Shown: positions 5,174 through 48,972 of the stretch, piece after piece
How positions within the stretch are numbered: position 1 is the first letter of the stretch
Layout of the letters: each line of letters begins with the position of its first letter
Source: an uncultured virus (IMG/VR IMGVR_UViG_3300012277_000001)
Lineage: Duplodnaviria; Heunggongvirae; Uroviricota; Caudoviricetes
Length of the DNA stretch: 64,000 nucleotides
Direction: 5' to 3' (one strand)
IMG/VR virus record: IMGVR_UViG_3300012277_000001
Span: 186,001 to 250,000 of that record
The notes under the pieces: model-generated
Seen by the model: only the letters and a program-made list of their open reading frames with translations
Told to the model about the DNA's origin: nothing
Databases searched by the model: none
Translations under genes and position numbers: made by a program

Positions 5174-5433
5174 TGGAAAGGCCCCACACGATTGTCTACT
5201 GTGCGGAAATTTCCGATGCGCTGGCTGAAGTTCCCATAGCGGATCTGCCGTCGCATGTAGACGATCCAGACCACCGGCTATACGGGCATCCGCTGTTCTT
5301 GGTGCCCAACCGCCAGTCACAACATATTGGCATCGGCATAAACAAAAATCCTGACTGGATAAAATCTCACACACTAATGCTGCGATACGGACTCGTTGAG
5401 CCGCGCAGTTATGGAGCGACCAATGAGCGATGA
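5173..5433 (+). CDS. Hypothetical protein
   Basis: 86-aa ORF in the operon. Confidence 0.45.
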   Translation: MERPHTIVYCAEISDALAEVPIADLPSHVDDPDHRLYGHPLFLVPNRQSQHIGIGINKNPDWIKSHTLMLRYGLVEPRSYGATNER

Positions 5434-6646
5434 TGTAAAAAAGAAGAAAAAGAAAAAGGGGTTGGTGAAATCCGACGCCCCCGATCTGAAACTGAAAAAG
5501 AAAAAGAAGAAGGGTTCTGAAGGCGAAGACACTGGCCTGAAGAAAAAGAAAAAGAAAGGCATGCAAGACCTCGGGCGTGATGTGAGCGGCACCCTCGAAG
5601 GTGACGACAAGCCCAAGAAAAAGAAAAAGGAATTGGCGGAAAAACCTGCCGAGCCTATGCGTGAGCAACTGCCGGTCGAACAAGACGATTACATTATCGT
5701 CAAGGTTGGCAAGAAAAACGAACTGGCATTCGCTCACAGCCCCAAGCGTAACACCGCGTACATCGAACGCACCATGAACACCGATGCTCCGGTTACGTTC
5801 GAATACGACGGCAATACGCTGATTGCCAACCTCGGCAAAGATCCGATCCCCGGCAAAGTCTTCGGCGTCGATATCCAGCCGCATTATGGCACCATTGATT
5901 CGCCAATGGGTCCGATGCACATGTTCCGCAAGCTGACCGAAGAAGAAAAAGAAGCGATTTGAATCGCACAGAAAAAAGTTGTGAAGAAACTGGAAGGTAT
6001 GGAACTGGGCAAGCTGTTCCCGTTTACCAGCCTCGAAGTGCACAATCCACGCGGGCGTTGGGCCGGTTCCTACCAAGTCAGTTTCAAATCCGGCGAAGCG
6101 GTGGACAAAGTAAAACTGATGCCGAAAATCCTCGACGATCAGATTTACAACCAGTATGTTTTCGCCCACGAATGCGGCCACGGCGTGTGGTATCGCTATG
6201 TGCCTGAGCGCATCCGTGCATTGTGGCTCGAACAGTACAACGCCATGACCGCCGTCACCAAAGCCAAGAAATCCGAACTGGCCGACCAATGCCAATCGCT
6301 GGTTTCTTCCGGCCTGTCGATTCGCGATTTCCAACGTGATTTGGAAGGCGATGAACTGGCTATGTTCAAAGAGGCGCTGGCATACCTGAAGAAAGTTCAC
6401 AAAATGACGCCGGAAGACGTGAACGTTCTGCTGAACCAGAACAGCACGGTGCTTGCTGAAATCTGGCCGACTAGCGCTTCGATTTCCAACGCCGATTCGC
6501 TGGCTGCGTTGCATGGCCCGTATGCCGCAACGTCCGTGCAGGAAATGTTCGCCGAGATTTTCGCCGCTCATTTGAAGGGTGATCACGTGGGCAAAACCCT
6601 GACTAAGCTGCTGGAAAAAACACTCAAAGTTGCACGTTCGGAGTAA
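5423..6646 (+). pseudogene. Zincin-like metallopeptidase (HExxH) with a poly-Lys N-terminus, interrupted by one in-frame TGA at 5960-5962 (nonsense mutation, readthrough or sequencing error)
   Basis: ORFs 5423-5962 and 5981-6646 share a frame; read-through gives EEKEAI*IAQKKVVKKLEG; motifs FAHECGHGVW and EMFAEIF. Confidence 0.6.
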
Positions 6647-7177: not shown

Positions 7178-7476
7178 ACCCAAAAGTCCAACTGATGATT
7201 GCTGTATGGTGTGTCGCAGTTGGTGCCCTTATTGCCTATGCAGTGTGGAAGGGTATCAGTGCCGCCAAGGCCACTAAGCGCAAGCGCGACCACGACGCTG
7301 CGATTGCTGCTGCCAAGGCCCAAGGGAAGAAACCCAAATCCAATTTCCAACGCAGTATGGATCGGGCTATCTACCACAAAGCAGTGCGCCGTGGCGCAAC
7401 ACCGGCTGAAGCAATCAAGGCCGTGAAGATTTACAACGATAAGCTGGCCCAGCGCGATACTGTAAATAATGGGTAA
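7174..7476 (+). CDS. Small membrane-anchored basic protein
   Basis: N-terminal hydrophobic helix LMIAVWCVAVGALIAYAVW. Confidence 0.6.
   Translation: MNPKVQLMIAVWCVAVGALIAYAVWKGISAAKATKRKRDHDAAIAAAKAQGKKPKSNFQRSMDRAIYHKAVRRGATPAEAIKAVKIYNDKLAQRDTVNNG
7460..7468 (+). promoter_or_regulatory. CTGTAAATA motif (putative phage middle/replication promoter element); one of 10 copies
   Basis: Recurs at 1478, 7460, 10670, 18054, 27576, 35492, 37971, 42220, 45625 and 54579. Confidence 0.65.
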
Positions 7477-8694: not shown

Positions 8695-10868
8695 TGGATC
8701 TTTCCACTATCGAAGCGGGTCTGCTGTACACCATCAAAGGCGAGCCGGGTAAAACCCTTACCTATTACGGTGATCAACTGCGCATGTCGCATACCCACCT
8801 GACCCGTGCGCTGGAAAAGCTGGTGCGTGCTGGGTATGTCGAGCGCAACGACAACAAGCTGACGATTTCTGATTCGTTCCAGAAAAAGGAAGCGGAAGCC
8901 GAGGAAGTAGCAGAGGTAGTGGAAATCCCTGAACCTGTTGTTGAGGTAAAGGTAGAACCTGTTAAAAGCATCGGTGAAAAGATTTTTGAACAGGCGGCCG
9001 AATCGGCACCGAAACACCCGCCCGTAACTTCCATGGAATTGCAAAAACTGCTGGCCGACGGTGTGCCGCGCACTGCACTGCAAATCGCAATGCACTTCGG
9101 TTACAACCGTGGCACCGCCGTTGCGCAAGTGCTGCGCAATATGTGCAACGCGAACGTGATGGTAAAAGACGGCCCGCTCTACACGCTGAAGCATGAGCCG
9201 AATACTGTTGCCGTGAAAGACGTTGCCAAAGCTGAGGCTGTACCTGACGAAAAAGCAGAACATGAATTGACCGACCTCGAATTGAGCGAAGCAATTCTGC
9301 GTATGCGTGAACCGTTCACCGCCGACCATTGCTTCTCGGTTATGCAGCGGCGCCACAAGCTGGATCGTGCACGGTTCCTAGACATTTTCGAGGCGGTGGC
9401 TTTCTCTGGTAAATTCCTAGCATGGGATGGCCAAGAATTCGTCGATCCTACTGTGGATTATTCACCGGCCCACACGTTCGTCGTGGCCAACGTTGTAGAC
9501 GCCAAAGAATCCATCAGCCTCATGGATTCCTACTGCCAGAAACTCAAAGGCCCTTACAAGCTTTTCGAGGTTGTGAGCACCACGCGCCTGCCTCCGTCTG
9601 AAGTGTTGGCTTACTTCGCAGACATGAATTACTTCACCCGCGATATCAACAATATCCACCACGGAAACTTCGCGCCGCATTACCCGAACCGCAAGGAACG
9701 GCAGGCGTTGAAAAAAGGCCCGGTGGCCAAGCCCTACGCCCGCCTCGAAACGCTGGATCAAGAAAGCGTCAAGCGCTTCATGCTGGGCGGTGTGGCGGTT
9801 GATACGTTCATCAAACGTTTCAACCTCGACCCTTCCGAAAAAGCCCGCCTCATTGAACTTCTGGTGGCCACCAATTTGGCTCGCCACGAACAGGAAAATG
9901 ATTGGATTTTCCTGCGTGATGATGTGGAAATGGAACGTGTCAAACTGGGCGATTACGACGAACCTGAAATCGAGTTGCCCGCCGACCATTTGTTGAACGA
10001 CGAATTGTCGGAAGTGGTGGTCGCCTGCATCGAAGAGGAAGAGCGGCTAAAAGTCGGCCCACTGACTGCACCGACCGGCCAGTCACCTCGCGTGTGGAGC
10101 GAACAGGAAAAAACCTCGTTAGTTGCAGCGCTGAAGGAAGTTGTGACAGCCGAAGAAACTGCCCCGCTTCCTGACCTGATGATTATGTCGCGTGAGTTCG
10201 CGGAAGATATCGGCATTCCGGTTGACGAATTGCCACACCAGAATGCGGACGGCACTTTCGAATTCCGTGCAGAAGATATTGGCAATCTCACTGCGATTCC
10301 TGATGGTATATTCAACCAGCTGGTCGATTCCTTTGTCGGTAGCATCCCCAGTGCGCCGGGCAACCCAGCCGTTATGTCCCAAGGCTTGTGTATCATGAGT
10401 CGGGAAGAGTACGAAAAGGTAAAAGCTGCGGGGGCCAACGTTGTGATGCGCGATGCAGTTCCTAACACTGACAACGTTTATGTTTGGATTGGCCCCGGCC
10501 AGCAAACGGAAGACGTTTTCTCTAACGGGGATATCGGCAACGATCATTTCATGGACGACGACGCAGATACTACCGCCTGCGAAGGCTGCGATCACCACTG
10601 CTGTATCTGCACCGAAGAAACCAACGATACCTGCGGCGATTGCGGAGCCGGTGCCAACGATGAATGTATCTGTAAACAATCAGTAGGCCCCGCTATGAAA
10701 TCACCGGGAGTGCCCGCAACAGAAGGCATGGAACATTTCAAAGGTTTCAGCCCTGATCCACGTTGGATGGTAATGTTGCAAATGCTGGAAGAGCGCCTGC
10801 GCTTCGAGCACCAGCCAACGACAGCCAACCAACTCAAAGAAATTCGTGAGTATTTGGAAACCCAATGA
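8691..10868 (+). CDS. Large hypothetical protein with N-terminal winged-helix-like repeats and a Cys-rich C-terminal region
   Basis: HTH-like segments (HLTRALEKLVRAGYVER; VAQVLRNMCNANVMVKDG); CEGCDHHCCIC...CGDC. Confidence 0.6.
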   Translation: MMDLSTIEAGLLYTIKGEPGKTLTYYGDQLRMSHTHLTRALEKLVRAGYVERNDNKLTISDSFQKKEAEAEEVAEVVEIPEPVVEVKVEPVKSIGEKIFEQAAESAPKHPPVTSMELQKLLADGVPRTALQIAMHFGYNRGTAVAQVLRNMCNANVMVKDGPLYTLKHEPNTVAVKDVAKAEAVPDEKAEHELTDLELSEAILRMREPFTADHCFSVMQRRHKLDRARFLDIFEAVAFSGKFLAWDGQEFVDPTVDYSPAHTFVVANVVDAKESISLMDSYCQKLKGPYKLFEVVSTTRLPPSEVLAYFADMNYFTRDINNIHHGNFAPHYPNRKERQALKKGPVAKPYARLETLDQESVKRFMLGGVAVDTFIKRFNLDPSEKARLIELLVATNLARHEQENDWIFLRDDVEMERVKLGDYDEPEIELPADHLLNDELSEVVVACIEEEERLKVGPLTAPTGQSPRVWSEQEKTSLVAALKEVVTAEETAPLPDLMIMSREFAEDIGIPVDELPHQNADGTFEFRAEDIGNLTAIPDGIFNQLVDSFVGSIPSAPGNPAVMSQGLCIMSREEYEKVKAAGANVVMRDAVPNTDNVYVWIGPGQQTEDVFSNGDIGNDHFMDDDADTTACEGCDHHCCICTEETNDTCGDCGAGANDECICKQSVGPAMKSPGVPATEGMEHFKGFSPDPRWMVMLQMLEERLRFEHQPTTANQLKEIREYLETQ

Positions 10869-13174
10869 TCAACATCACCAGCAGCCGTTTTAGCGGTATC
10901 GTCTCGTACAAAATGGGTGAATTTGATTTCACCAATAACTGTGGTTTGACCACGGTTACAGGACACAACCGTGACTCCCTGATTTCCAAGAATCAGAACA
11001 ACGGCGCTGGTAAATCCCTGCTGTTTTCGATGCTGGCCAACACTGCCTTCGAGCAGACGCCTATGGCCGACACGCGGAAGAAAAACCGCATTCACTCGAA
11101 AGGATCGTTCATCGAACTGACTGTGGAAAACTTGGGCCACAAGTGGACGATCCGACAGCAAGCAGGGGGTTATCAAATCTTCCGCGATGGGGAAGACCTC
11201 AAGGTCCGTGGCCAAGCCTCCCAGCGCGAACAGATTGCGAAAATTCTGCCGCTTACGCAGGAAGAGTGGTATTCGTACGTCCACCTGCAATCGCAGAAGA
11301 AACTTGAGTTCCTGTATGGCACACCGCGTGCCCGAATGACCTACATCAGCGAAGTGTGGCGCCTCGATCAATTCGATGTGCTGCGCCGCTACTTCGAAAA
11401 GAAAGTCGATGAAGTCAAGGTCGCACAAAACAAATCGGATGCCTTCAGCCACCAGCTGATGAACATCAATGATTCGTTGAACAAGAATGGCTGGAACAAG
11501 CAACTGGAAAAGGAACTGAAAGAGGCGAAGGAAATCGTCAAAACCCAGTCCAAGAAAGTTACGAAGCTTCAGACCCAGCGCCAAGAACTGAAGAGCCTCG
11601 CAAAGCAGGTCCAGTTCTACACCGAAACCAAAGACAAGCTGCAAAAGAACAAAAAGAAAATCCGCTTCGATCTATCCGAACTGAAGGAGCAGTACAAGCT
11701 GCACCAGCAGGTTGAGAAATACGAAGAGGAACGCGAAGAGTACGACCGCCGCACTAAGAAACTGGTGCGCAAGCTGGAAGAACTGGGCGATACGTCCGGG
11801 GGTGGCAAGGCCAGCAAAAAGAAAATCAAGGAACTACGGGCTGAATTGGCCAAGCTGGAAGAGGCGGACAAACGCCTTGAGAAGGTTCGCGATAAGCACG
11901 ACGCAGCTGTGCGCGAACTGGAAAACTTGGATGATCACGTGGACCCCGATCTGCGTAAGTTCTTGTCCAAGTGCAACAAAGAAAAAGTCGATCCGATGGA
12001 AGCGCTCAAAGAAGAGTATGCCGAAGCGAAATCGACAATGAAGCTGGCTGATCTGTTGCACGATCACGACGGTGGCAATTGCCCGACCTGTGCACAGAAA
12101 ATCAACCTGAAGGATTTGGAAAAATCCATTGCCAGTGCCAAGAAACGCCGTGGCAAAGCGCACTCGATGATTCACGCGCTGGAAATCCGAATTGCCAAGG
12201 AAGAGAACACGGCAATCATCAAGGATTTGCGCTTCGATGAACGTTCGTTCTACTCGGGTCGCAAGCGCATCAAGACCATTCGCGCCGAGTTGGAAAAACT
12301 CGAAGAGCAGATGGAAAACGCTGTCCGCTATGACGAACTCATGGCGCAGATGCAGGAACTGAAAAAACCGAAGGCGCCGAAGCGTAGCCCTGCCCTGTCG
12401 ATGGAAAAGATCGAACAGCAAAAGGAATACCACGACGAAGTTAAGCGCCTGAAGTTGCGCCTTGCTGAATTTGATGAAGTGCCCGAAGACGACAACATCC
12501 TGAAGCGCTTGGCTGAAGTCGAAGCGAAGCTGGAAAAGGTCGAAAAGAAATACTCCAAAGCCCACAAGGTTACGGTACGCTATAGCTCGCTGCGAGCAGA
12601 GTACAAACTGCTGACCAAGCAGCGCGAAGAAACCAGCCTGAAGATCGAAGAATTTGCACCACTGATCAAAAAGCTGAAGCGCTTCAAGATTCTGGCCAAA
12701 GCCTATTCGAACAAAGGCCTGAAACTGAATGCCATGCACGAAATCGTGTACGGGCTGGAACAGAACTACAACAAATACGCATCGCTGATTTTCGCAGAGC
12801 CATTCAAGTTCCGCGTAGAAGCCAAGGAAGACGGGGTACACATCACGGTTGACCGTGGCCAAGGTAACGTGTCTGACGTTCGTGAATTGTCGGGTGCTGA
12901 ATCCGATAGTTTCCGACTGCTGCACTTCCTCGCCTGCGTGATCATGGCCAAGGATGATCGCCGAGTTAACCTTGCGATTCTCGACGAACCGGACGCGCAC
13001 ATGGACCCGGCGACCACGCAGCTGTTTGTCGAACGTTACGTGCCATTCCTGCGCAAGCTGGTGCCTCATGTGTTCATCATCACGCAGAAGGGCAAGCACC
13101 TGCACCCGGAATGCTCTTACGTCACGGTTGAAAAATTCAAGGGGGTTTCAAATGTTCGATATGACGCTGCCTGA
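10865..13174 (+). CDS. sbcC: SbcC/Rad50-like ATPase (recombination nuclease subunit)
   Basis: Walker A NGAGKS, coiled coil with CPTC zinc hook, signature LSGAE, Walker B ILDEPD. Confidence 0.92.
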   Translation: MINITSSRFSGIVSYKMGEFDFTNNCGLTTVTGHNRDSLISKNQNNGAGKSLLFSMLANTAFEQTPMADTRKKNRIHSKGSFIELTVENLGHKWTIRQQAGGYQIFRDGEDLKVRGQASQREQIAKILPLTQEEWYSYVHLQSQKKLEFLYGTPRARMTYISEVWRLDQFDVLRRYFEKKVDEVKVAQNKSDAFSHQLMNINDSLNKNGWNKQLEKELKEAKEIVKTQSKKVTKLQTQRQELKSLAKQVQFYTETKDKLQKNKKKIRFDLSELKEQYKLHQQVEKYEEEREEYDRRTKKLVRKLEELGDTSGGGKASKKKIKELRAELAKLEEADKRLEKVRDKHDAAVRELENLDDHVDPDLRKFLSKCNKEKVDPMEALKEEYAEAKSTMKLADLLHDHDGGNCPTCAQKINLKDLEKSIASAKKRRGKAHSMIHALEIRIAKEENTAIIKDLRFDERSFYSGRKRIKTIRAELEKLEEQMENAVRYDELMAQMQELKKPKAPKRSPALSMEKIEQQKEYHDEVKRLKLRLAEFDEVPEDDNILKRLAEVEAKLEKVEKKYSKAHKVTVRYSSLRAEYKLLTKQREETSLKIEEFAPLIKKLKRFKILAKAYSNKGLKLNAMHEIVYGLEQNYNKYASLIFAEPFKFRVEAKEDGVHITVDRGQGNVSDVRELSGAESDSFRLLHFLACVIMAKDDRRVNLAILDEPDAHMDPATTQLFVERYVPFLRKLVPHVFIITQKGKHLHPECSYVTVEKFKGVSNVRYDAA

Positions 13175-15106: not shown

Positions 15107-15374
15107 AGATCGCCCAAACTACGAAAAACTCAAAAGCTGGTTGTACATCGTACGCACGCAAGCCGGTTTCCGCCAAGCAGTGAAAGAATATTCCGGTCCC
15201 GATTTCGATATGGGTTATCTGCGTGGCTTTCCACAATCTTATCCGGCACTCGTTATGTTTTCGGACGGCTACGAAGGCTATCACTTCACAGAAGCCAGCT
15301 GTATTCCGATCAACGAATTGACGGCCAAAATCGCTGAGCACGAAGCGAAGTACGGGAACAAAAACGATGCGTGA
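15093..15374 (+). CDS. Hypothetical protein
   Basis: GAGGA RBS. Confidence 0.55.
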   Translation: MSNGEDRPNYEKLKSWLYIVRTQAGFRQAVKEYSGPDFDMGYLRGFPQSYPALVMFSDGYEGYHFTEASCIPINELTAKIAEHEAKYGNKNDA

Positions 15375-15939
15375 TTACGAAGTGGTCTGTAACGAAACCA
15401 ACAACAGCCCGGAAGATATCGACAACAACGTGTTGAACATGGATATTGTTGGGCACTTTCCGCTGGTTGGTTGGAAAGAAACCGATATTTCCACCGGCAA
15501 ACTCGATGCGGGTCCGTTGGTGTTGCCGTCCCACACAGGGCCGCGTGGCTGGTATGGTCCGATTGGTAGCAAGAAATTCAAAATGCTGATGGTCATGCCT
15601 TCTGACTATCCGTGGATCTTGCCCGCCCGCCCATACAAGGAAGTCCGGGGCGATCAAGCTTTTGAAGGCGGCCCGAAAAACCCCGAAATCCAACTGACGG
15701 GTATGCTCGGGACCATTACGGGTGTGCAGATTCATACCGACTGCCGCGTCGGTGCAAAAACGCCACGTTACACGTACGCTATGAAGTACAACAAACGCGG
15801 GGTCGAGGTCACAGTTTTCGACCACGAAGAACAAGGTCATTTCTATATCTACCAATATCGTTCTGCACGCGAGGCCCGCACCGAGTTCAAGGCCCACGGC
15901 GTACAGCCAATCTTCCGCTACAAAGGTAAACGCAAATGA
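15367..15939 (+). CDS. Mosaic protein: tail-sheath C-terminal hairpin motif, capsid-like segment and basic module
   Basis: DYEVVCNETNNSPEDIDNNVLNMDI matches sheath DWETICDERNNKPADIANNDIILDF in this window. Confidence 0.6.
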   Translation: MRDYEVVCNETNNSPEDIDNNVLNMDIVGHFPLVGWKETDISTGKLDAGPLVLPSHTGPRGWYGPIGSKKFKMLMVMPSDYPWILPARPYKEVRGDQAFEGGPKNPEIQLTGMLGTITGVQIHTDCRVGAKTPRYTYAMKYNKRGVEVTVFDHEEQGHFYIYQYRSAREARTEFKAHGVQPIFRYKGKRK

Positions 15940-16214
15940 CGAATAAATCTGTATGGGAAGATTTGTTTAGCCCGGAAGAAGCGCCCGCGCTGCGCCTGCG
16001 TTCGGTCATGTTGCATCGCATCACTGACAAGGTGCTTAGCTGGGGCCAGAATCCAGAACTGATTAGCCAGAAGTTGGAAATCTCGGTTGAGCGTCTGCGC
16101 ACTATGCTGGCCGGACACCTCGACCTCTTCAGCTACGATGATTTGGTGGCCATGTTGCCGCGTGCAGGCCTCGATTTGGAAACCGTTATGCGGGAAGGGG
16201 TGCGCCGGTGCTGA
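15936..16214 (+). CDS. XRE-family HTH protein (HTH_37/HigA2-like)
   Basis: LRLRSVMLHRI...ISQKLEISVERLRTMLAGHLDLFSYDDLVAML. Confidence 0.65.
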   Translation: MTNKSVWEDLFSPEEAPALRLRSVMLHRITDKVLSWGQNPELISQKLEISVERLRTMLAGHLDLFSYDDLVAMLPRAGLDLETVMREGVRRC

Positions 16215-16618
16215 AACTCGCTGAAGGTTTTTCCAATTACGGCAAGCAGAGCACGCCGCAATCGTGGACCGTCAATTTCGACAACTTCCCAAGCGGCATG
16301 AAATATCCGCCGCTCGAAATCAAAGTTGCTGCCCCGGAACTACGCCCAGTACAGCTGGATTTTGCTGTCACCGAAACTTCGTCGGATCTGTGCGAAAATC
16401 CCGATATGCAGCTAGTGAAATGGTTGCAGGATTGGGCAACGTTGGCCAAATCCCATAACGACGCCCCACGCTTCACCGTCGATTCCGGGCGCAAAGGTGT
16501 GACCGTTACGTTTGCCAATGCACCGATGTTGCAGCTGTGGTTTCGTTCCCGTCGTCTGGCCAAAGTCTACGCCAAAAAGCACGACGTTTCCTTTTCGCAC
16601 ATGAGTCCCGCCCAATGA
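16208..16618 (+). CDS. Hypothetical protein: possible tail-tube-like N-terminus plus basic WFRSRRLA module
   Basis: QSWTVNFDNFPSG...VTET...LVKWLQDW; GVTVTF...WFRSRRLA. Confidence 0.5.
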   Translation: MLKLAEGFSNYGKQSTPQSWTVNFDNFPSGMKYPPLEIKVAAPELRPVQLDFAVTETSSDLCENPDMQLVKWLQDWATLAKSHNDAPRFTVDSGRKGVTVTFANAPMLQLWFRSRRLAKVYAKKHDVSFSHMSPAQ

Positions 16619-17241
16619 AGAAAATGTACATCGCAGTTTTGGACGAAGCGCCGGATTACATGGTGCCTACGCTGGTTGCCCACTCGGTGATGAACGCCCA
16701 CGATTTTTTCAAATCGCCCGGTCGTTCGGATGCACAGCGTGCGTGGTACTCTGACTGGAACATAAATTCGTTCCGCAAAGTCGTGGTGAAAGTTCCGGGC
16801 ACTGTGTTCGATAAAATCCACGCGACTTTGGATTGCTGGGCCGGTCACGAAAATACCATCTGCAACGGCGCTACTACCTGCCTTGTGGTGAATCCAGTCG
16901 AATCCGACGACGTACCGAAGCCGCTGCAATATGCACAGCTGTGGAAACCTGCACAACCCGCCCATATCACGGACGACTGGATTGCAGAAAATCTGCCCGC
17001 TCATATCAGTATGATGCTCGATAGCGTGCCCATCGGTCTAGATGCATCTATGCGTAGCACGATTCACCGATATGCTGAATTGATTTCTGCAATTCGCATT
17101 GGTTATTACCGCGTGTGCGAAGGCGATACGCTTTCGCATATTGGCATGTACACCGGCGCCGATTGGCGCGAACTTGCACGCATCAACAATCTGAAAAATC
17201 CTGACCTGATTTATCCGGGCCAGCTGATTAAACTTCGTTAA
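16615..17241 (+). CDS. Peptidyl-tRNA hydrolase 2 (Pth2)-like domain fused to a C-terminal LysM domain
   Basis: KMYIAV...VAHSV...W...SFRKVVVKV...TTCLVVNP; YRVCEGDTLSHIG...LARINNLKNPDLIYPGQLIKL. Confidence 0.65.
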   Translation: MKKMYIAVLDEAPDYMVPTLVAHSVMNAHDFFKSPGRSDAQRAWYSDWNINSFRKVVVKVPGTVFDKIHATLDCWAGHENTICNGATTCLVVNPVESDDVPKPLQYAQLWKPAQPAHITDDWIAENLPAHISMMLDSVPIGLDASMRSTIHRYAELISAIRIGYYRVCEGDTLSHIGMYTGADWRELARINNLKNPDLIYPGQLIKLR

Positions 17242-17250
17242 GGAATCCAG

Positions 17251-17577
17251 ATGAATGCAGTGACAGATGATATCCAAGAATCGGCTGACGAAATCGAACA
17301 GTTAGCCGAGCAGCTGGACCCGCTGGATCGTGATATTTTCTTCACGCGTTGTGCAATGAACAGTGACCACAAACTGGTCTATACCGAAATGTGGTTCGAA
17401 CGTGCGAACGCCCGCGACTTCGCGATTTACGCAGTGACGCAAGGTGATACGTTGCAGGAAATTCACGCACGTTTCCAGCTTTCTATCAGCGTGAAGCGAC
17501 TTGCATTCATCAACAACATTTCGGACCCGAGCAATCCACCTCTTGGCCTGCTGATTACCCTCAAGGATGTAAAATGA
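17251..17577 (+). CDS. LysM-domain protein
   Basis: YAVTQGDTLQEIHARF...LAFINNISDP. Confidence 0.65.
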   Translation: MNAVTDDIQESADEIEQLAEQLDPLDRDIFFTRCAMNSDHKLVYTEMWFERANARDFAIYAVTQGDTLQEIHARFQLSISVKRLAFINNISDPSNPPLGLLITLKDVK

Positions 17578-18047
17578 CCGACACTGAAGATTTGCTCACT
17601 GTTCCTAGCACCGTAAATGCACTGGATCGCATCGTACTGCGCCAGTCCGTACAGCATCTGCAACAGCAAATCGCAACTAGCCTTAGTGAAGCAGTGAGCG
17701 AAAGTTTGTTCGATAAAACTCCGCAAGAAATGATAGCCCGGTGCGATGCCATGCTGGCGGATATGCATGAGAAAAAACTGATTGGTGCCGACCTGAAGGC
17801 CATCGACTCGAAAATCTGCACGAAGTACGAAATCCACGACGACAAAAATCGCTGCCTCGTTCGCCTCATGGACGAAAACGATAGCGATATCAAATTCATC
17901 TGGTTACGCGGTCGTCGCAAGGCACACAAGATTGGTCGCCAGCATATCGGTTCCGTCTACCTTGCGTTCTCTGCTGTACCTGTCCCATTGAAACGGGTTG
18001 TCTTTCAAGTGCAGGTTGAGACAAAGCCACGGGAGTTCCGTCACTGA
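17574..18047 (+). CDS. Tail-sheath C-terminal-domain-like protein with an inserted basic module
   Basis: NALDRIVLR and PVPLKRVVF align by eye with sheath SGFQNVNVRR and PSIPAKRASL. Confidence 0.55.
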   Translation: MTDTEDLLTVPSTVNALDRIVLRQSVQHLQQQIATSLSEAVSESLFDKTPQEMIARCDAMLADMHEKKLIGADLKAIDSKICTKYEIHDDKNRCLVRLMDENDSDIKFIWLRGRRKAHKIGRQHIGSVYLAFSAVPVPLKRVVFQVQVETKPREFRH

Positions 18048-18349
18048 TGGCAACTGTAAATACAATGAAGCGTGAGCTTTTCGTCTTGATCATCAATCAT
18101 CTGGAACGGGAAGCACGGCCCGCAACGCAGGGCTTGAAAGGTAGCGCGAAACAGCAGGCATTTCGCAAGTATGTGAACGACCGTTATCTGCACATCGGTC
18201 GCCCGCTGAATCTCGAATTCACTCCATTTTTCCAGTTGGATGACCCACTGGACGAACACGAAAAGATGCTCGAATCCGATCTGGATGTTCTGATTGGTAT
18301 CGCATCGAAACTCGGTTACGTTCTGGAAATCAACTGGTCCCGTCGTTAG
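18047..18349 (+). CDS. Hypothetical protein
   Basis: ORF directly upstream of sbcD. Confidence 0.5.
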   Translation: MATVNTMKRELFVLIINHLEREARPATQGLKGSAKQQAFRKYVNDRYLHIGRPLNLEFTPFFQLDDPLDEHEKMLESDLDVLIGIASKLGYVLEINWSRR

Positions 18350-18358
18350 GAAACCATT

Positions 18359-19405
18359 GTGGCAAAACAATTTGAAGCCGTTTTCACCTCGGACTGGCAT
18401 TTGACCGGTTTGAATAAACATTTCCAAGATGCAGATGATCGCATCCTGTCCGAAGGCCGGAAAATCTTTCAGTACGCGCTGAATAACGGCATCAAATACG
18501 TGATCATTCCGGGTGACATTTCCGATCATCCGTTCCTGCCTTACGACACGTACACCAGCCTGTTCAACCTGTTCTACGAATACGACAAACTGCTGACCAT
18601 TATCTACGTGGCAGGCAACCATGATTTCGAGAATATCGAAAACATGTCCATGAATTTCATGCGTCGTTTGTCCAAGACCAAAGCCTTCAAGAACCTGCGT
18701 ATTGTGCTCAAGCCTGAGCGTATCGAAATCGAAGGTGTGCCGGTCAACCTGCTGCCGTATCCATGCTTGAAAACTCTGTCGAAAAAGCAGGGTGCTCTGA
18801 ACGTTGCCCACGTTGAATATACCGGGGCCGTGGGCGACAATGGCCGTACGCTTAAAACCAAGCACGAACTGGAGTCGCACAAAAACGATTTCACCATTAG
18901 CGGGCACATTCACCAATATCAGTACATGGAAAAGAAACGTGCCATTTACTGCGGTAATCCGTTCCAAAAGAACTTCGGTGAAACCAGCGTTAAAGGGTTT
19001 GTGCATGCACGCGTAATTCTGAATGGCGACCGTGTGGATGTTGAGCACAAATTCGTCGAGAATAAACCCGCATTTAGCTTGCAGAACATTCACATTAAAG
19101 ACCTGAATGATTACAAAAAGCTGAAGCATGATTCGAATATCCGATACAAGCTGCATATTGATCCGGATATTCCGGTTCCTGCCGATATCATGCTGCAATA
19201 CCCGAATATCACGGGCGGTATTGTTTATACCGCTGGTAAAGGTAAAGACGTGGCAGAAATTGAAACGCTGAAGATTGAGCGTGCCGATATTGACCCTATG
19301 TTTGGGTTGGCGTCTTTCCTTGGGGCTGAAGGGTTGACCGAAAAAGAAATTCAAATGACGATTAAAGAGGCCAAAAAGGCCCAAAACGCCTGCGGTTTTT
19401 CCTGA
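18359..19405 (+). CDS. sbcD: SbcD/Mre11-like metallophosphoesterase nuclease
   Basis: TSDWH, PGDI, AGNHD and SGHIH motifs; AGGA RBS. Confidence 0.92.
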   Translation: MAKQFEAVFTSDWHLTGLNKHFQDADDRILSEGRKIFQYALNNGIKYVIIPGDISDHPFLPYDTYTSLFNLFYEYDKLLTIIYVAGNHDFENIENMSMNFMRRLSKTKAFKNLRIVLKPERIEIEGVPVNLLPYPCLKTLSKKQGALNVAHVEYTGAVGDNGRTLKTKHELESHKNDFTISGHIHQYQYMEKKRAIYCGNPFQKNFGETSVKGFVHARVILNGDRVDVEHKFVENKPAFSLQNIHIKDLNDYKKLKHDSNIRYKLHIDPDIPVPADIMLQYPNITGGIVYTAGKGKDVAEIETLKIERADIDPMFGLASFLGAEGLTEKEIQMTIKEAKKAQNACGFS

Positions 19406-19458: not shown

Positions 19459-19530
19459 TATTAGTTGGTCGGGCATCGCGGCGCTGCGATTAAGGCCTTC
19501 TACTTAAACCTTCAATCGAGGATCACCCCG

Positions 19531-20916
19531 ATGGTCATGAAAGCCGTCCAAAAGGACAAAAGCGTCGAGGCTGTTAAAGCTCGCAAAAAGGCGAAGGTTA
19601 GCCGTCGCCAGAACAAGCACAAAATCAACAAGGCTGCCAAACAGCGTTACGCGAAAATGACTCCGAAAGAGAAACTGGAGTTCCATGCGCGTCAACAGTT
19701 CACCAAGGCCATGCGCCACGGTGCAACCGAAGCTGAAGCCAAGAAAATCGTTGCTGCATGGAAAAAGCGCCGTAAACAGCGTGAATCCGGTTCCCATGCT
19801 GCTGCCCAGCGCCGCGATGCCCACGCCGCCCAGCGTCAAATCCGTGCGCAGCTGAGCCGCAAATCGGATGCCCTGAGCACCCAACACAAAAAAGCACTTC
19901 AGGCCATCAAAGCCAAAGGCAAAACTCCTGCTGCTCGCGCTCAACTGCGTGCCAAGGAAAAAGCCCGTTACGCCGACGCCCGCAAAGCGCTGGCCGCCGA
20001 GCGCATGAAGGCTACCGGTGCTCACAAAAAGGCTCTGAGCAAGATCAAAGCGAAAGGCAAATTCTCGCTGAAATCCATGATCGGCAACTACAAAGAGAAG
20101 CCGATTTCCAGCCAAGGTAAGCGTCTGGTGGATACCGCCAAGAAAGCTGCCCAAGCTGACGTAGCAAAAATCGCCAACAAGCATTTCGGCGGCGCCAAGA
20201 AAAAGGCTCCACGTAAACCGAAAGCTGCTGCCGCTCCTGCCGCTGCCCCGGCCACTCCTGCCGCCCCAGCCCAAAAGCTGAACAAAGACGGTAGCGTTGC
20301 CAAAAAACGCGGTCGCAAACCGAAGTCTGAAACCGCTGCTGCCCCGGCTGCGAAAGCACCTGCCAAGGCGCCGACCAAAAAGGCCGCTGCCAAGAAAGCC
20401 GAAGCCGCTCCTGCGCCGAAGCTGAACAAAGACGGTAGCGTTGCCAAAAAACGTGGTCGTAAGCCGAAGTCGGAAACTGCCGCCGCTCCTGCCGCTCCTG
20501 CTAAAAAGGCTCCGGCCAAAAAAGCAGCCGCGAAAAAAGCTGATGCTGCCCCGGCACAAAAGCTGAACAAGGATGGTAGCGTACCGAAGAAACGCGGTCG
20601 TAAGCCGAAGTCCGAAACCGCTGCTACCCCAGCTGCAAAAGCGCCAGCTAAGGCTCCAAAAGCCAAAGCAGCCAAAGCAGCCAAAGCACCGGCCAAGGCC
20701 CCAAAAGCCAAAGCCAACGTCGAAGCGAAAGAAAAACCAGCAGCCAAAAAGCCCGCTGGTAAAACCGCTCCGAAAAACGCTCCGGCCAAAAAGCAACCGG
20801 CTACCAAGCCAGCCGCTAAAGCCGCTGCGAAAAAACCGGTGAAACAACCTGCTTCGGCTGCGAAAGCACCGGGCAAGAAAACCGGCGGCGCCGTACCGAA
20901 AGCCAAATTCGGTTAA
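19531..20916 (+). CDS. Histone H1-like Lys/Ala/Pro-rich DNA-binding protein with three AT-hook-like repeats
   Basis: GAGGA RBS before ATG at 19531; extreme K/A content; 3 x KLNKDGSV.KKRGRKPKSETAA. Confidence 0.8.
   Translation: MVMKAVQKDKSVEAVKARKKAKVSRRQNKHKINKAAKQRYAKMTPKEKLEFHARQQFTKAMRHGATEAEAKKIVAAWKKRRKQRESGSHAAAQRRDAHAAQRQIRAQLSRKSDALSTQHKKALQAIKAKGKTPAARAQLRAKEKARYADARKALAAERMKATGAHKKALSKIKAKGKFSLKSMIGNYKEKPISSQGKRLVDTAKKAAQADVAKIANKHFGGAKKKAPRKPKAAAAPAAAPATPAAPAQKLNKDGSVAKKRGRKPKSETAAAPAAKAPAKAPTKKAAAKKAEAAPAPKLNKDGSVAKKRGRKPKSETAAAPAAPAKKAPAKKAAAKKADAAPAQKLNKDGSVPKKRGRKPKSETAATPAAKAPAKAPKAKAAKAAKAPAKAPKAKANVEAKEKPAAKKPAGKTAPKNAPAKKQPATKPAAKAAAKKPVKQPASAAKAPGKKTGGAVPKAKFG
20275..20630 (+). 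repeat. Three imperfect direct repeats (about 65-bp conserved core, about 143-bp period) inside the H1-like gene
   Basis: aagctgaacaa(a/g)ga(c/t)ggtagcgt...cg(c/t)ggtcg(c/t)aa(a/g)ccgaagtc at about 20275, 20419 and 20560. Confidence 0.9.
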
Positions 20917-26269: not shown

Positions 26270-27064
26270 ATGGCGATTAAAAAAGGTTCCGGTGTGAAAG
26301 TGCGCACCGTGCGCGGTGGCAACGACGATGACGACGGGATCGTGATTGACACGAAAGGACGGCCCCGCAATTCCAATCTGGATGAAGGGCGCGGCCCCGG
26401 CATCAAGAAAAAGAAAAAGCTGAAACCGAAGGAAAAAGAAGCGGTCGTTATCGAAGACAAGAAATACAAGGCTGGCCAAGATCCAGTCAAAAAGAAGAAA
26501 AAGAAACCGCTTGAAGGTGAATTGCTGCCTGCCAAATCGTCTGGTAAAGAACTGGCCACGGTCAGTGCTGGCCCTGCTGCGCTGAAGAAAAAAGCGAAGG
26601 GTAAGCATGACGTGATGCAGGCTGTTGAGGAATACGTGCAATTGCCGCAACCCGTCGATGAATTCGACGCGGAAACCCGGCGTATTTTCGAACAGTTGGT
26701 CCGAACTGCTGGCCGACTGGAAGAGCAGATGGAAGAACGCATTTACAACAAAGACGTTTATGCGCTCAACACCATCTATTCGCAGATTCGTGAAGTGATC
26801 GCAGACCTTCGGGCAACCCGCGACATTTCTGCACAGATTTCCGAACTGGAAGCTGTGGTGCTGCGTCCATATCAGCAGATTGTGGCGCAGGGCTTTACCG
26901 ACATGTATTTCCACATGATGGGGGCCATTACCAAGTTCGTGAAAGACGATGACGTTCGCGCCGAACTGGAAAAGAAAATGAAAAACACTTTGGGTGAGGT
27001 TGCGGAAACCGTGACTGAAGAATATCCAAAGGCGTTGGATCGCATGAGGAAGGTTCTGCTATGA
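26270..27064 (+). CDS. Poly-Lys N-terminal, helical C-terminal protein (possible terminase small subunit or DNA-binding protein)
   Basis: KKKKK tracts; coiled-coil C-terminus; adjacent HNH gene. Confidence 0.45.
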   Translation: MAIKKGSGVKVRTVRGGNDDDDGIVIDTKGRPRNSNLDEGRGPGIKKKKKLKPKEKEAVVIEDKKYKAGQDPVKKKKKKPLEGELLPAKSSGKELATVSAGPAALKKKAKGKHDVMQAVEEYVQLPQPVDEFDAETRRIFEQLVRTAGRLEEQMEERIYNKDVYALNTIYSQIREVIADLRATRDISAQISELEAVVLRPYQQIVAQGFTDMYFHMMGAITKFVKDDDVRAELEKKMKNTLGEVAETVTEEYPKALDRMRKVLL

Positions 27065-27426
27065 GTTTGAGGCCGAAACGCGTTGCGCCCAAGAAAGTCA
27101 AAAGCGTTATTTCTGGTCCCGGCAAAGCGAAAGTTGTGGCTAAGGTACGCCGCGATTCCAGCAAGGTTTACGGCGACCGCTCGGCGTGGATGGCTGTACG
27201 TGAACGTGTACTGAAACGTGACGGCTACAAATGCACGAAATGCCCAAGCACCGAATACCTTCAGGTCGATCACATTCGCCCCGTTGCGCAAGGTGGCCAA
27301 ACGGTGATGCAGAACTTACGGACCCTGTGCGCAGATTGCCACGCGGGTCAACACAGTTCGCGCCATTCCAAACATTTGATTCTTTCGAAGAAGAAAAAAG
27401 ATGCCGAGCATGCCAGCCGACGTTGA
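27061..27426 (+). CDS. HNH endonuclease
   Basis: VLKRDGYKCTKC...VDHIRPVAQGG...NLRTLCADCH. Confidence 0.92.
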   Translation: MSLRPKRVAPKKVKSVISGPGKAKVVAKVRRDSSKVYGDRSAWMAVRERVLKRDGYKCTKCPSTEYLQVDHIRPVAQGGQTVMQNLRTLCADCHAGQHSSRHSKHLILSKKKKDAEHASRR

Positions 27427-28087
27427 TTCGGCCTACGCCGGATCGTGGGAAGCGTTTTTGGAATTGCCTGAAACGAAAAGCCTGAATCCAGTAGTTCGGG
27501 AAGAGGCTTTTCGCATCCTGTTGCGGCAGGCTGGCACAAAAATCAAAACGCTGAAAAAATTGCAGGATTTCTTTACTGTAAATAAACTGTATGCCGAGTT
27601 TAACAAGACGTTGAATTCGAAGTTCCTTTTGACCCATATGAAACCCGAACGACACAGTTTCGAAATCGTTTTTACCGACGCTGACGAACTGGTAAACGTC
27701 GTGCACGGTTTTAAGGTGGTGGGTCAAGTAAAAATGAAACCGCAACGCTTTGACCTCGATTACTTGATTGCCCGTATGGTTCAAGTAAAAGTGCTGAAGG
27801 AATTTCCGGATGCGCTGAAGGTCAGTTCACGCAAGGTGATGCGGGACGGCAAGCAGGTGACGATTAAAACAGACCGGTGCCCTGCCAAGATTTTGCAGTT
27901 GAAACCTTGGCAGGAAGTAACTGTGGTAATCAACAGCAAATTCCGTGTGACCATTGCGCGCCTGAAGGGTGGTGTTCTGGCCATGAAGTATGAGGTTTAT
28001 TTCCACACTGAAATTCCGTTCTACCAAGACCTAGAAAAACAACTCCTTGCCGTCTGGCGTAGGGCATCAATTGGAGACTTGCAATGA
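27401..28087 (+). CDS. Hypothetical protein
   Basis: 228-aa ORF. Confidence 0.6.
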   Translation: MPSMPADVDSAYAGSWEAFLELPETKSLNPVVREEAFRILLRQAGTKIKTLKKLQDFFTVNKLYAEFNKTLNSKFLLTHMKPERHSFEIVFTDADELVNVVHGFKVVGQVKMKPQRFDLDYLIARMVQVKVLKEFPDALKVSSRKVMRDGKQVTIKTDRCPAKILQLKPWQEVTVVINSKFRVTIARLKGGVLAMKYEVYFHTEIPFYQDLEKQLLAVWRRASIGDLQ

Positions 28088-28500
28088 GCATCGTAACTGC
28101 GCTGGATGGTATTGATTCCATTCTGGCCATCATCAAAAAGGGCGACGCTACGCCCGACAAAAAAATCGAAGCGATTCTCGGTTTGGCCGAAGTCGTGCGC
28201 AATGACATTCAGGATTTGGCCGACAATTCGTATTCGAATTATGTCGAAGAACTGCCGCCAATCACCTTCGATATGCAGCAGGCAGTAACCGATTTCCTGA
28301 CAGCATTTCGTAAGGAGGAATACAACAACCTGTATTACTACTACGAATTGCCAATCTTTGCCGACGAAAAAGATCCGCACGTACGCATGGCCATTGCGAG
28401 CGCGCTGGTCAAATTGGCAACCGAACTGAAGCGGAAACCGAATCCCGATTGGGCTTTCCTCATTCAAACTGAAGGCGTAATTCCCGAGGCCAACGAATGA
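28084..28500 (+). CDS. Hypothetical protein
   Basis: GGAG RBS; ATGA overlaps. Confidence 0.6.
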   Translation: MSIVTALDGIDSILAIIKKGDATPDKKIEAILGLAEVVRNDIQDLADNSYSNYVEELPPITFDMQQAVTDFLTAFRKEEYNNLYYYYELPIFADEKDPHVRMAIASALVKLATELKRKPNPDWAFLIQTEGVIPEANE

Positions 28501-47331: not shown

Positions 47332-48972
47332 ATGGCTTTTACCAACACCAGCGCTGGTGTTTATGATCAGGATCGCGACGTAAGTCAACGCGGTTCGACG
47401 GTCATTAGCTCCATTGCGGCAGCCGTAATCGAATCGCCACGCGGTTCGTCCACTGAATGGGTTTACGTGACGGACAAGCAGGATCTGCTTGAAAAATTCG
47501 GCACCAAAAACTATTCCAAATACGGGTACGGCATGCATTGCGCCGAACACGTTCTTACCCAAACCGCAATGTGGATCAAGCGCGTTGTTAACGCTGCTAC
47601 TTCCCGCACTGCTGGCGCCTACCTTTCGGTGGACGACACGACCGCGCTGGAGCCAGTTATCAAACTGGTTTGCTTCGATGACGGCACCAACAAACCGCAG
47701 GGGGTTTTGGGCGATCCGCTGAAGACCCTCGGTTTCCCCATTTCGGATGCGGGGGTTAAAAACGCCCTGCTGTACGTTTGCGCGAATTCCGCTGGTGAAT
47801 GGGCGCGTGCAATCAGCGTTCGTATTCGCCCGGCCAACCCCGAAGGCACCGAGGTTGGCGAGTTCAACGATCCGTACCATTTCTACCTCGACGTTTTCGT
47901 CAATTACACCGGTTCTTCCAGCGTGCCGGTTGAATCGTATCTTTGCAGCCGCAAATACGAAGTCGATGGCGAAGGGAACCAGATGTTTGTCGAGTCGCGT
48001 GTAAATGCATTCTCGAAATACATCAAGGTGAAAAACAACAGCCTTTGCCCGCAGGTTGAAATTCGCACCACCGCGTTCGAATACCTCGACGGCGGCGATG
48101 ACGGCGAGCGCGCTACCACCGCTGAAATCAACAACGCGTGGGAAGGCATCGACGACACCGACCAGTACGCGGTTCAATTGCTGGTTGCTTGCGGTTACGA
48201 ACACGAACAAACCGTACGCCGCATGAACGTTGTTGCCGCTAATCGTGGTGACGCGATTGCGATCAACGATTTGCCGTTCGAAATGCAGGAAGTTTCGCGT
48301 GCTGTTAACTGGCGCCGCAACATCCTCAACCTGAGTTCCAGCTACTCGGCACTGTACGGCCCGCGTGGTCAAATCACCGACGACGTTTCGGGCAAGAAAT
48401 TCTGGTGCCCGATTTCCGGTTTGGTTGCTGCACAGTATGCGTACACTGACCGCGTGCGTGCCTACTACTGGGCGCCTGCCGGTATCAACCGGGGTCAAGT
48501 GAAAGTCACCGATTTGTCGAAGAAATACAGCCTGCGTGAACGCAATGCGCTGGAACAATCGCAAATCAACTACGTGCGCCGGATTCCGGGGCGTGGTTAC
48601 GTGATCATGGAACAAATGACGCTGCAAAACTTCGCTTCTGGTTTCCAGAACGTGAACGTGCGCCGTCTGGTAAACGGCATCAAAGCCATGATTCGCCGTG
48701 CGTTCCTGCCATCGGTATTCAACCCTGCCGATGATTTCGAACGCAAACAGCTGAAAAACATCGTGGACGCTGAAGCCCGTTCGGTTAAGCAAGGTCGTGG
48801 TCTGTACGATTGGGAAACCATCTGCGACGAACGAAACAACAAACCGGCGGATATCGCGAACAACGATATCATTTTGGATTTCGTGATCGACCCGAGCATT
48901 CCGGCGAAGCGTGCATCCCTGACCGCCGATATCCGCAATTTCGGCTCTTCCATCGAATTCAAAGAGAACTAA
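47332..48972 (+). CDS. Contractile tail sheath protein
   Basis: SAGVYDQDRD, WAPAGINRG, NVNVRRL, CDERNN motifs of T4 gp18-like sheaths. Confidence 0.93.
   Translation: MAFTNTSAGVYDQDRDVSQRGSTVISSIAAAVIESPRGSSTEWVYVTDKQDLLEKFGTKNYSKYGYGMHCAEHVLTQTAMWIKRVVNAATSRTAGAYLSVDDTTALEPVIKLVCFDDGTNKPQGVLGDPLKTLGFPISDAGVKNALLYVCANSAGEWARAISVRIRPANPEGTEVGEFNDPYHFYLDVFVNYTGSSSVPVESYLCSRKYEVDGEGNQMFVESRVNAFSKYIKVKNNSLCPQVEIRTTAFEYLDGGDDGERATTAEINNAWEGIDDTDQYAVQLLVACGYEHEQTVRRMNVVAANRGDAIAINDLPFEMQEVSRAVNWRRNILNLSSSYSALYGPRGQITDDVSGKKFWCPISGLVAAQYAYTDRVRAYYWAPAGINRGQVKVTDLSKKYSLRERNALEQSQINYVRRIPGRGYVIMEQMTLQNFASGFQNVNVRRLVNGIKAMIRRAFLPSVFNPADDFERKQLKNIVDAEARSVKQGRGLYDWETICDERNNKPADIANNDIILDFVIDPSIPAKRASLTADIRNFGSSIEFKEN

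Follow-up and report, generated by a model that had tools for sequence, protein, structure and literature searches.

A free-standing relative of the tail sheath C-terminal domain, carrying an inserted basic domain, in a Lu11-like jumbo phage

Introduction

Why should a phage with contractile tails carry, among its replication and recombination genes and some 30 kb away from the closest sheath gene, a small gene that resembles only the last part of a tail sheath protein? The question is raised by an open reading frame (ORF) at positions 17574-18047 (+), which encodes a protein of 157 amino acids (aa) and lies among small genes between sbcC and sbcD. It is contained in a window of 64,000 nucleotides, which corresponds to bases 186,001-250,000 of a 307,943-base virus record (IMGVR_UViG_3300012277_000001; G000). 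The sheath protein encoded in the window shares 92% identity with that of Pseudomonas phage HRDY3, 71% with that of Lu11 and 46% with that of PaBG, and judging from these identities the source virus is a Lu11/HRDY3-like jumbo myophage.

A preliminary description of the sequence took the protein for a stand-alone sheath C-terminal domain that could cap or block sheaths, or act as a decoy; the ORF and all the segments quoted from it were found as described. We conclude from homology, architecture and selection that the gene arose long ago by duplication of the final domain of a tail sheath gene and has acquired a basic domain at the hairpin loop. It is a real and selected variant of a known fold, apparently not described in the literature searched and with a putative function.

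Results

Origin of the core from the sheath

Taken alone, the 157-aa protein matched nothing in Pfam or PHROGs at E<=0.1, and a BLASTP comparison with its own sheath gave no significant match (best E 0.91). The ungapped register on the sheath that had been put forward contains 8 identities in 62 positions, with a BLOSUM62 score of 14 that was matched by 2 of 10,000 shuffles kept in register and by 5 of 300 shuffles that were free to sit anywhere in the sheath. The likeness is thus weak on the single sequence, but it is clear at the level of the family. The family was assembled by word searches, which yielded seven proteins, and by a full profile search, which yielded 20 clusters, 17 of them new, giving a total of 24 members of 94-257 aa. 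Matches to Phage_sheath_1C (PF17482) at E<=1 were obtained for eight of the 24 (best 4.6e-5), as compared to two for the next family, and nine matched the tail sheath family phrog_23 (best E 1.4e-5). The search against Phage_sheath_1C, proposed as a check, was therefore negative for the protein itself at E<=0.1 and positive for its relatives, although member P0004 reached 19.4 bits, which is under the cut-off of 26.9.

Furthermore, a family profile from which the insert had been removed, and which contains no sheath sequence, was searched against 2,592 ORFs. Both sheaths of the virus were its top non-self matches (E 2.2e-5 and 1.3e-3; next 0.34), and the score was attained by none of 1,000 shuffled sheaths. 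In profile-profile comparisons, the core matched the sheath C-terminal domain with a probability of 97.8% over 92 columns (one of the eight template rows being a wrong-frame sequence), as against 1.9% for the insert alone. Since the relatives match where the single protein does not, we consider the homology settled, and the proposed derivation from the sheath C-terminal domain stands. Two full sheath genes are present in the record, a trait also described for PaBG (PMC7412058; published sources are cited here for those parts of their text that were available):

47332-48972, plus strand: full-length tail sheath 1, the source family, with PF04984 and PF17482 both over cut-off
254567-256159 of the record, beyond the window: second sheath paralogue, from genome profile searches

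The family core is homologous to the tail sheath C-terminal domain (PF17482, phrog_23), which corresponds to residues of about 542-633 in gp18 of T4. Full sheaths have about 420 additional residues, including an N-terminal arm and the PF04984 domain, which are missing from the family protein; PF04984 gave no match among the families listed for the members. All members are shorter than the shortest modelled sheath, of 321 aa (PMC9230969). Longer or fused forms were not seen among 8,000 candidates, which is weak evidence.

A folded domain in place of the hairpin loop

The protein consists of three parts, as defined by the alignments and by a model from AlphaFold2 (AF2):

17616-17819, plus strand: residues 15-82, a pair of helices of the sheath type followed by hairpin strand 1 (AF2; profile-profile match with the sheath domain)
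17820-17945, plus strand: residues 83-124, the beta-beta-beta-alpha insert, which has a basic helix at its end and is more strongly conserved than the other parts (AF2; conservation)
17946-18026, plus strand: residues 125-151, second hairpin strand and a strand equivalent to the sheath C-terminal arm (alignment to the end of the sheath domain; AF2)

In the first part, helices were predicted at residues 16-44 and 50-66 and a strand at 73-81, with a predicted local distance difference test score (pLDDT) of about 55-64, and in the last part strands were predicted at 128-137 and 140-148. The insert, with strands at 84-90, 93-99 and 105-111 and a helix at 114-124, is the only part of the protein that was confidently modelled (pLDDT 87-90 over residues 81-120). 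Whereas sheaths have a short hairpin loop with the conserved sequence Cys-Asp-x-x-Asn-Asn, the family has a 42-residue insert in its place. The preliminary description held that the hairpin had been replaced by a basic insert, but both hairpin strands are predicted (73-81 and 128-137), and it is solely the short loop that has been exchanged. Likewise, the basic stretch to which it pointed is present (residues 111-124 contain six lysines and arginines and no acidic residue), but it is merely the end of the 42-residue folded domain.

The predicted fold is gp25-like, as anticipated, with a gp25-type chain as the top fold match, and the arm-binding platform retains its full set of secondary elements according to the AF2 model, the fold match and the profile-profile alignment. 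A Foldseek search of PDB with the first model returned nothing at E<=0.001. The insert had no match among known families and scored below 0.8 in the ESM Atlas when used alone; as a beta-beta-beta-alpha fold it was compared with AP2 and other nucleic-acid-binding domains built on a three-stranded sheet. Two other candidates were rejected. Clusters of Cache/PAS-type sensor domains scored 0.89-0.92 in the ESM Atlas with the whole protein (130-145 of 256 shared features), which is likely due to chance, and a PDB sequence search with a seven-member profile gave unrelated helical chains (best E 0.04). The best rows in BFVD included entries of 143 aa and 153 aa, taken by their length as the Lu11 and PaBG members, and also S5VM52, a 120-aa PaBG protein to which no place was assigned.

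Is the protein then the sheath initiator gp25 itself? The virus has a separate gp25 gene at 108665-109051 of the record, with a PF04965 match at 108725-108976 over the cut-off, and this gene adjoins a baseplate wedge gene. None of the 24 family members matched PF04965 at E<=1, and the EPRI motif, which has been described for Gp25 and IraD (PMC6546054), was not seen in the family alignment. A comparison of the core profile with the single gp25 sequence of the virus, a weak test, gave a probability of 0.3%. The likeness to gp25/TssE consists of the fold, whereas the location of the gene, between sbcC and sbcD rather than beside baseplate genes, is different. The protein is not the conserved initiator, an identity that had been named as fatal to the initial idea.

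Selection on the insert

In all six pairs compared, the nonsynonymous divergence (dN) was well below the synonymous divergence (dS), which was near saturation, and dN/dS was well below 1. The reading frame was intact in every locus read. The constraint is unevenly distributed, with a dN of 0.06 for the insert as compared to 0.25-0.59 for the core (three comparisons, three closest genomes). In eight orthologues, 14 of the 42 insert positions are invariant, but none of the 95 core positions. In the five genomes in which this gene and the sheath gene were both readable, 18-41 of 86-94 residues are kept in the core and 22-37 of 42 in the insert, as compared to 106-110 of 120 (88-92%) in the true sheath domain. 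The sole column that is invariant across all 24 members is an arginine in the insert, R115. From this pattern we infer that the work is done by the insert, and that the sheath part acts as a scaffold or as a mimic that changes rapidly. Selection preserves the insert far more than the sheath part, and hence the gene probably performs a new job instead of tail building.

Distribution of the family

The family spans at least 20 clusters at 50% identity, and the gene is present in all eight Lu11-like loci and in PaBG. It is located just upstream of sbcD in seven of seven loci (the window and six of eight further loci, L052 and L054 being omitted since their match was the one already given by L053) and also in HRDY3. 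The PaBG member, gp50 (E 1.8e-14), is found at a different genomic place. In that region (L030, PaBG 26858-28358), gp51 has an insert-like module, and gp48 may be a diverged paralogue, although this is only suggestive since the match came from an alignment that already contained gp48.

A loose first-pass search recovered no member from the five more distant two-sheath phages NCTB, fHe-Yen9-02, Yoloswag, JA29 and SNUABM_7, in which two weak matches fell in long ORFs. None of 25 pattern matches in bacterial and archaeal genomes was confirmed, and loci for the distant members were found neither in IMG/VR nor in GenBank phages besides HRDY3 and Lu11. Likewise, no description of the family was found in the available text of the literature searched (including PMC7824862, PMC13096335, PMC13250141, PMC9230969 and bioRxiv 10.64898/2026.01.04.697583).

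Neighbouring genes and a shared basic module

The genes from sbcC to sbcD are arranged head-to-tail with gaps of at most 127 nt, and the 157-aa gene is part of this run. Small genes have been swapped in this interval, which gives it a mosaic structure, and two of them resemble parts of the family protein:

10865-13174, plus strand: sbcC-like gene, which bounds the accessory interval on the left (phrog_77, E 1.8e-65)
15367-15939, plus strand: mosaic gene, the N-terminal 27 residues of which copy the sheath hairpin with its loop, and residues of about 136-171 of which are insert-like (hidden Markov model (HMM) and phrog matches)
16208-16618, plus strand: gene ending in an insert-like basic module, without a sheath part (insert HMM E 0.0044; 0 of 1,000 shuffles)
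18359-19405, plus strand: sbcD-like gene, which bounds the accessory interval on the right (phrog_100, E 1.8e-35)

The mosaic gene matched sheath residues 492-518 (E 0.0043, genome search) as well as phrog_23 and phrog_10581, and it matched the insert HMM with an E of 0.0028 that was attained by none of 1,000 shuffles. A short stretch of it also resembles the capsid protein, though not significantly (E 0.42). We considered the possibility that one sheath gene had been split into the 157-aa gene and this hairpin gene, but rejected it since each gene has both of the hairpin strands, in addition to which their order is reversed. A profile built from nine hand-picked neighbouring modules matched the insert profile with a probability of 94.6% (profile-profile), and it scored nine of the 24 family members above the 99th percentile of 960 shuffles and four above their maximum. 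We conclude with moderate confidence, from these sequence comparisons, that an insert-like module is shared with neighbouring genes.

The sheath hairpin recurs as an N-terminal tag on varied C-termini in seven of seven loci, in two of them at an E of about 0.04-0.05, and weak matches to it were seen in hypothetical proteins of Erwinia and Dickeya phages (E 0.2-0.3). The tag is fused to a helix-turn-helix domain in Lu11 and in L019, L055 and L056, and stands nearly alone in a 61-aa ORF in L053. Capsid residues of about 247-303 are found as downstream fragments in four of seven loci at E<=1e-12, while the window is not significant. Stand-alone fragments of the major capsid protein are located at 16877-17398 in L049, 16947-17810 in L050, 16883-17326 in L055 and 16768-17382 in L057; they follow a head-tail connector gene, with two copies in one Lu11 protein and none at this place in the window. 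In the window, a 195-aa ORF at 51-638 contains 40 residues of the portal protein of the virus (18/40 identical, E 2e-9).

Expression signals

A recurrent promoter-like motif follows the gene:

18052-18060, plus strand: promoter-like 9-mer directly 3' of the 157-aa gene (genome-wide enrichment)

The 9-mer has 40 copies in the genome, as compared to 2 on average over 20 base shuffles (about 20-fold), and is found after the 157-aa gene in eight of eight loci. Its positions in the window are 1476, 2902, 18052, 35490 and 45623; it also precedes the DNA polymerase gene, and the annotation at the corresponding place in Lu11 is a putative middle/late promoter. Upstream of the gene, the closest 7-mer cores occur at 7460 and 10670, ahead of the clamp loader and sbcC genes, and from there the genes are arranged head-to-tail. 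A scan for sigma-70 promoters gave four sites where 6.0 were expected. This arrangement suggests that the 157-aa gene is probably co-expressed with the replication and recombination genes.

Discussion

Our findings describe a building block of the contractile tail that has been put to use as a protein of its own, one that is under selection and has a grafted domain matching no family. What could such a protein do? We tentatively favor, at somewhat less than an even chance for the explanation as a whole, the hypothesis that it is a non-virion scaffold that presents a basic binding module. The protein would probably not be part of the tail. The sheath fold may serve as the scaffold, possibly self-associating by strand exchange via the retained C-terminal strand, and the insert would be the working surface, the arginine-rich helix of which most likely binds a conserved polyanionic partner, either a nucleic acid or an acidic protein surface. 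Probably expressed during infection together with the replication and recombination genes, the protein might act as an accessory factor in host takeover or conflict. The points in favor are the selection centred on the insert, the reuse of the module, the separate gp25, the remote locus, the different place in PaBG and the patchy occurrence.

IraD, which has a Gp25-like fold and binds RssB (PMC6546054), may be seen as a precedent by analogy for this fold taking on a binding job outside the virion. This anti-adaptor of RssB (PDB 6od1) is bacterial, derived from gp25 and retains EPRI, but it has no inserted domain and the identity is 7%. If the scaffold reading is true, the phage protein would represent a phage-side parallel to IraD, along with a small basic module that is reused across neighbouring genes.

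Some points limit this reading. An unrelated ORF on the opposite strand scored like the genes at 15367 and 16208 with the insert HMM, and the window protein is not among the members that exceeded the shuffle thresholds of the neighbour-module profile. Moreover, a docking role of the core could be masked by strand pairing through the backbone, which means that the capping idea is lowered, not removed.

An alternative hypothesis, which we find unlikely but worth serious consideration, is that the protein is an immune decoy. Its sheath-like surface would hold a host sensor of tail proteins inactive, the insert would help in the blocking, and the gene would be one of a set encoding fragments of virion proteins. 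Several virion proteins do have such small fragment genes, as exemplified by the sheath hairpin, the capsid fragments and the portal fragment at 51-638, and a rapidly changing mimic surface is what an arms race would produce. Among the proteins to which bacterial STAND sensors respond are those of capsid, portal and tail (bioRxiv 10.64898/2026.01.04.697583), and a precedent is provided by DSAD1, a small protein of SPbeta-like phages that blocks the defence sensor DSR2 through mimicry of the tail tube protein (PMC10973363). However, DSAD1 mimics the tube and not the sheath, has no shown homology to its model and acts on a target that is known, whereas the available text of the literature searched revealed no sensor of the sheath. 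If the decoy hypothesis is correct, the fragment genes are ready-made probes for host sensors of the tail sheath. Both this and the scaffold reading are testable, as Lu11 and PaBG are cultured.

A broader version, rather speculative in our judgement, is that Lu11-like jumbo phages have a "bait plus warhead" toolkit. Copied pieces of their own virion proteins (sheath domain, hairpin, capsid and portal) would act as baits, several being fused to the conserved basic module, and would find and disable either the sensors with which hosts recognise virion proteins or competitors' contractile machines. The available text of the STAND survey leaves host sheath sensors as an open possibility (bioRxiv 10.64898/2026.01.04.697583). 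If true, the 157-aa gene would be the sheath-directed member of the toolkit, pointing to a sheath-sensing immune system that has not yet been described.

It seems improbable that the protein modulates or poisons tail assembly by taking up the arms of sheath subunits as gp25 does, thereby capping, timing or blocking the sheaths of its own virus or of competing myophages, tailocins or T6SS. Strand pairing is mediated by the backbone and tolerant of sequence change, and the fold and secondary elements of the arm-binding platform are all kept. The sheath C-terminal domain and gp25 form a handshake platform (bioRxiv 10.1101/2021.12.18.469577). However, docking on a nearly constant lattice should keep the docking face, whereas the core drifts, without a single invariant position, beside a sheath that remains 88-92% constant. 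This makes capping or blocking of the virus's own sheath, as first proposed, less likely. Conservation is furthermore concentrated in the part that sheaths lack, and the loose search found no member in the five related two-sheath phages.

Still less probable is a role as a minor virion part, such as a second initiator or the terminal ring of a two-component sheath, in which the basic domain would contact DNA or the neck. The two sheath proteins of this phage group (PMC7412058), the constant presence of the gene in Lu11-like loci and PaBG, and the gp25-type chain as top fold match are consistent with such a role. Yet a canonical gp25 exists elsewhere in the genome, the gene is outside the structural clusters and shifts between loci, and divergence of the core is far more rapid than that of true tail proteins. 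The 14 virion proteins listed for PaBG in the available text of PMC7412058 do not include gp50, although this is a weak argument since the smallest protein listed is 18.9 kDa. Finally, that the gene is a functionless, decaying leftover of recombination is hardly credible: the interval is a mosaic, but selection, intact frames and the breadth of the family contradict it.

Other features of the window and the record

Two genes with LysM domains, at 16612-17241 and 17251-17577, are located immediately upstream of the 157-aa gene. The first of these is weakly PTH2-like in its N-terminal part and is annotated as an endolysin in HRDY3 and Lu11. At 19465-20916, a lysine- and alanine-rich, repeat-containing protein of 483 aa has a histone-like composition, and the relatives have a counterpart. 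A peptidase gene (phrog_17197) is present as two ORFs in the same frame, at 5396-5962 and 5981-6646, covering profile positions 3-99 and 109-326; at the matching place in PaBG, a single endopeptidase gene is annotated. Outside the window, a 201-aa ORF at 281697-282302 of the record (L059) encodes, on its own, a copy (49% identity) of residues 331-527 from a 1,185-aa protein, the gene for which is located at 259030-262587, downstream of the second sheath gene and probable tube genes.
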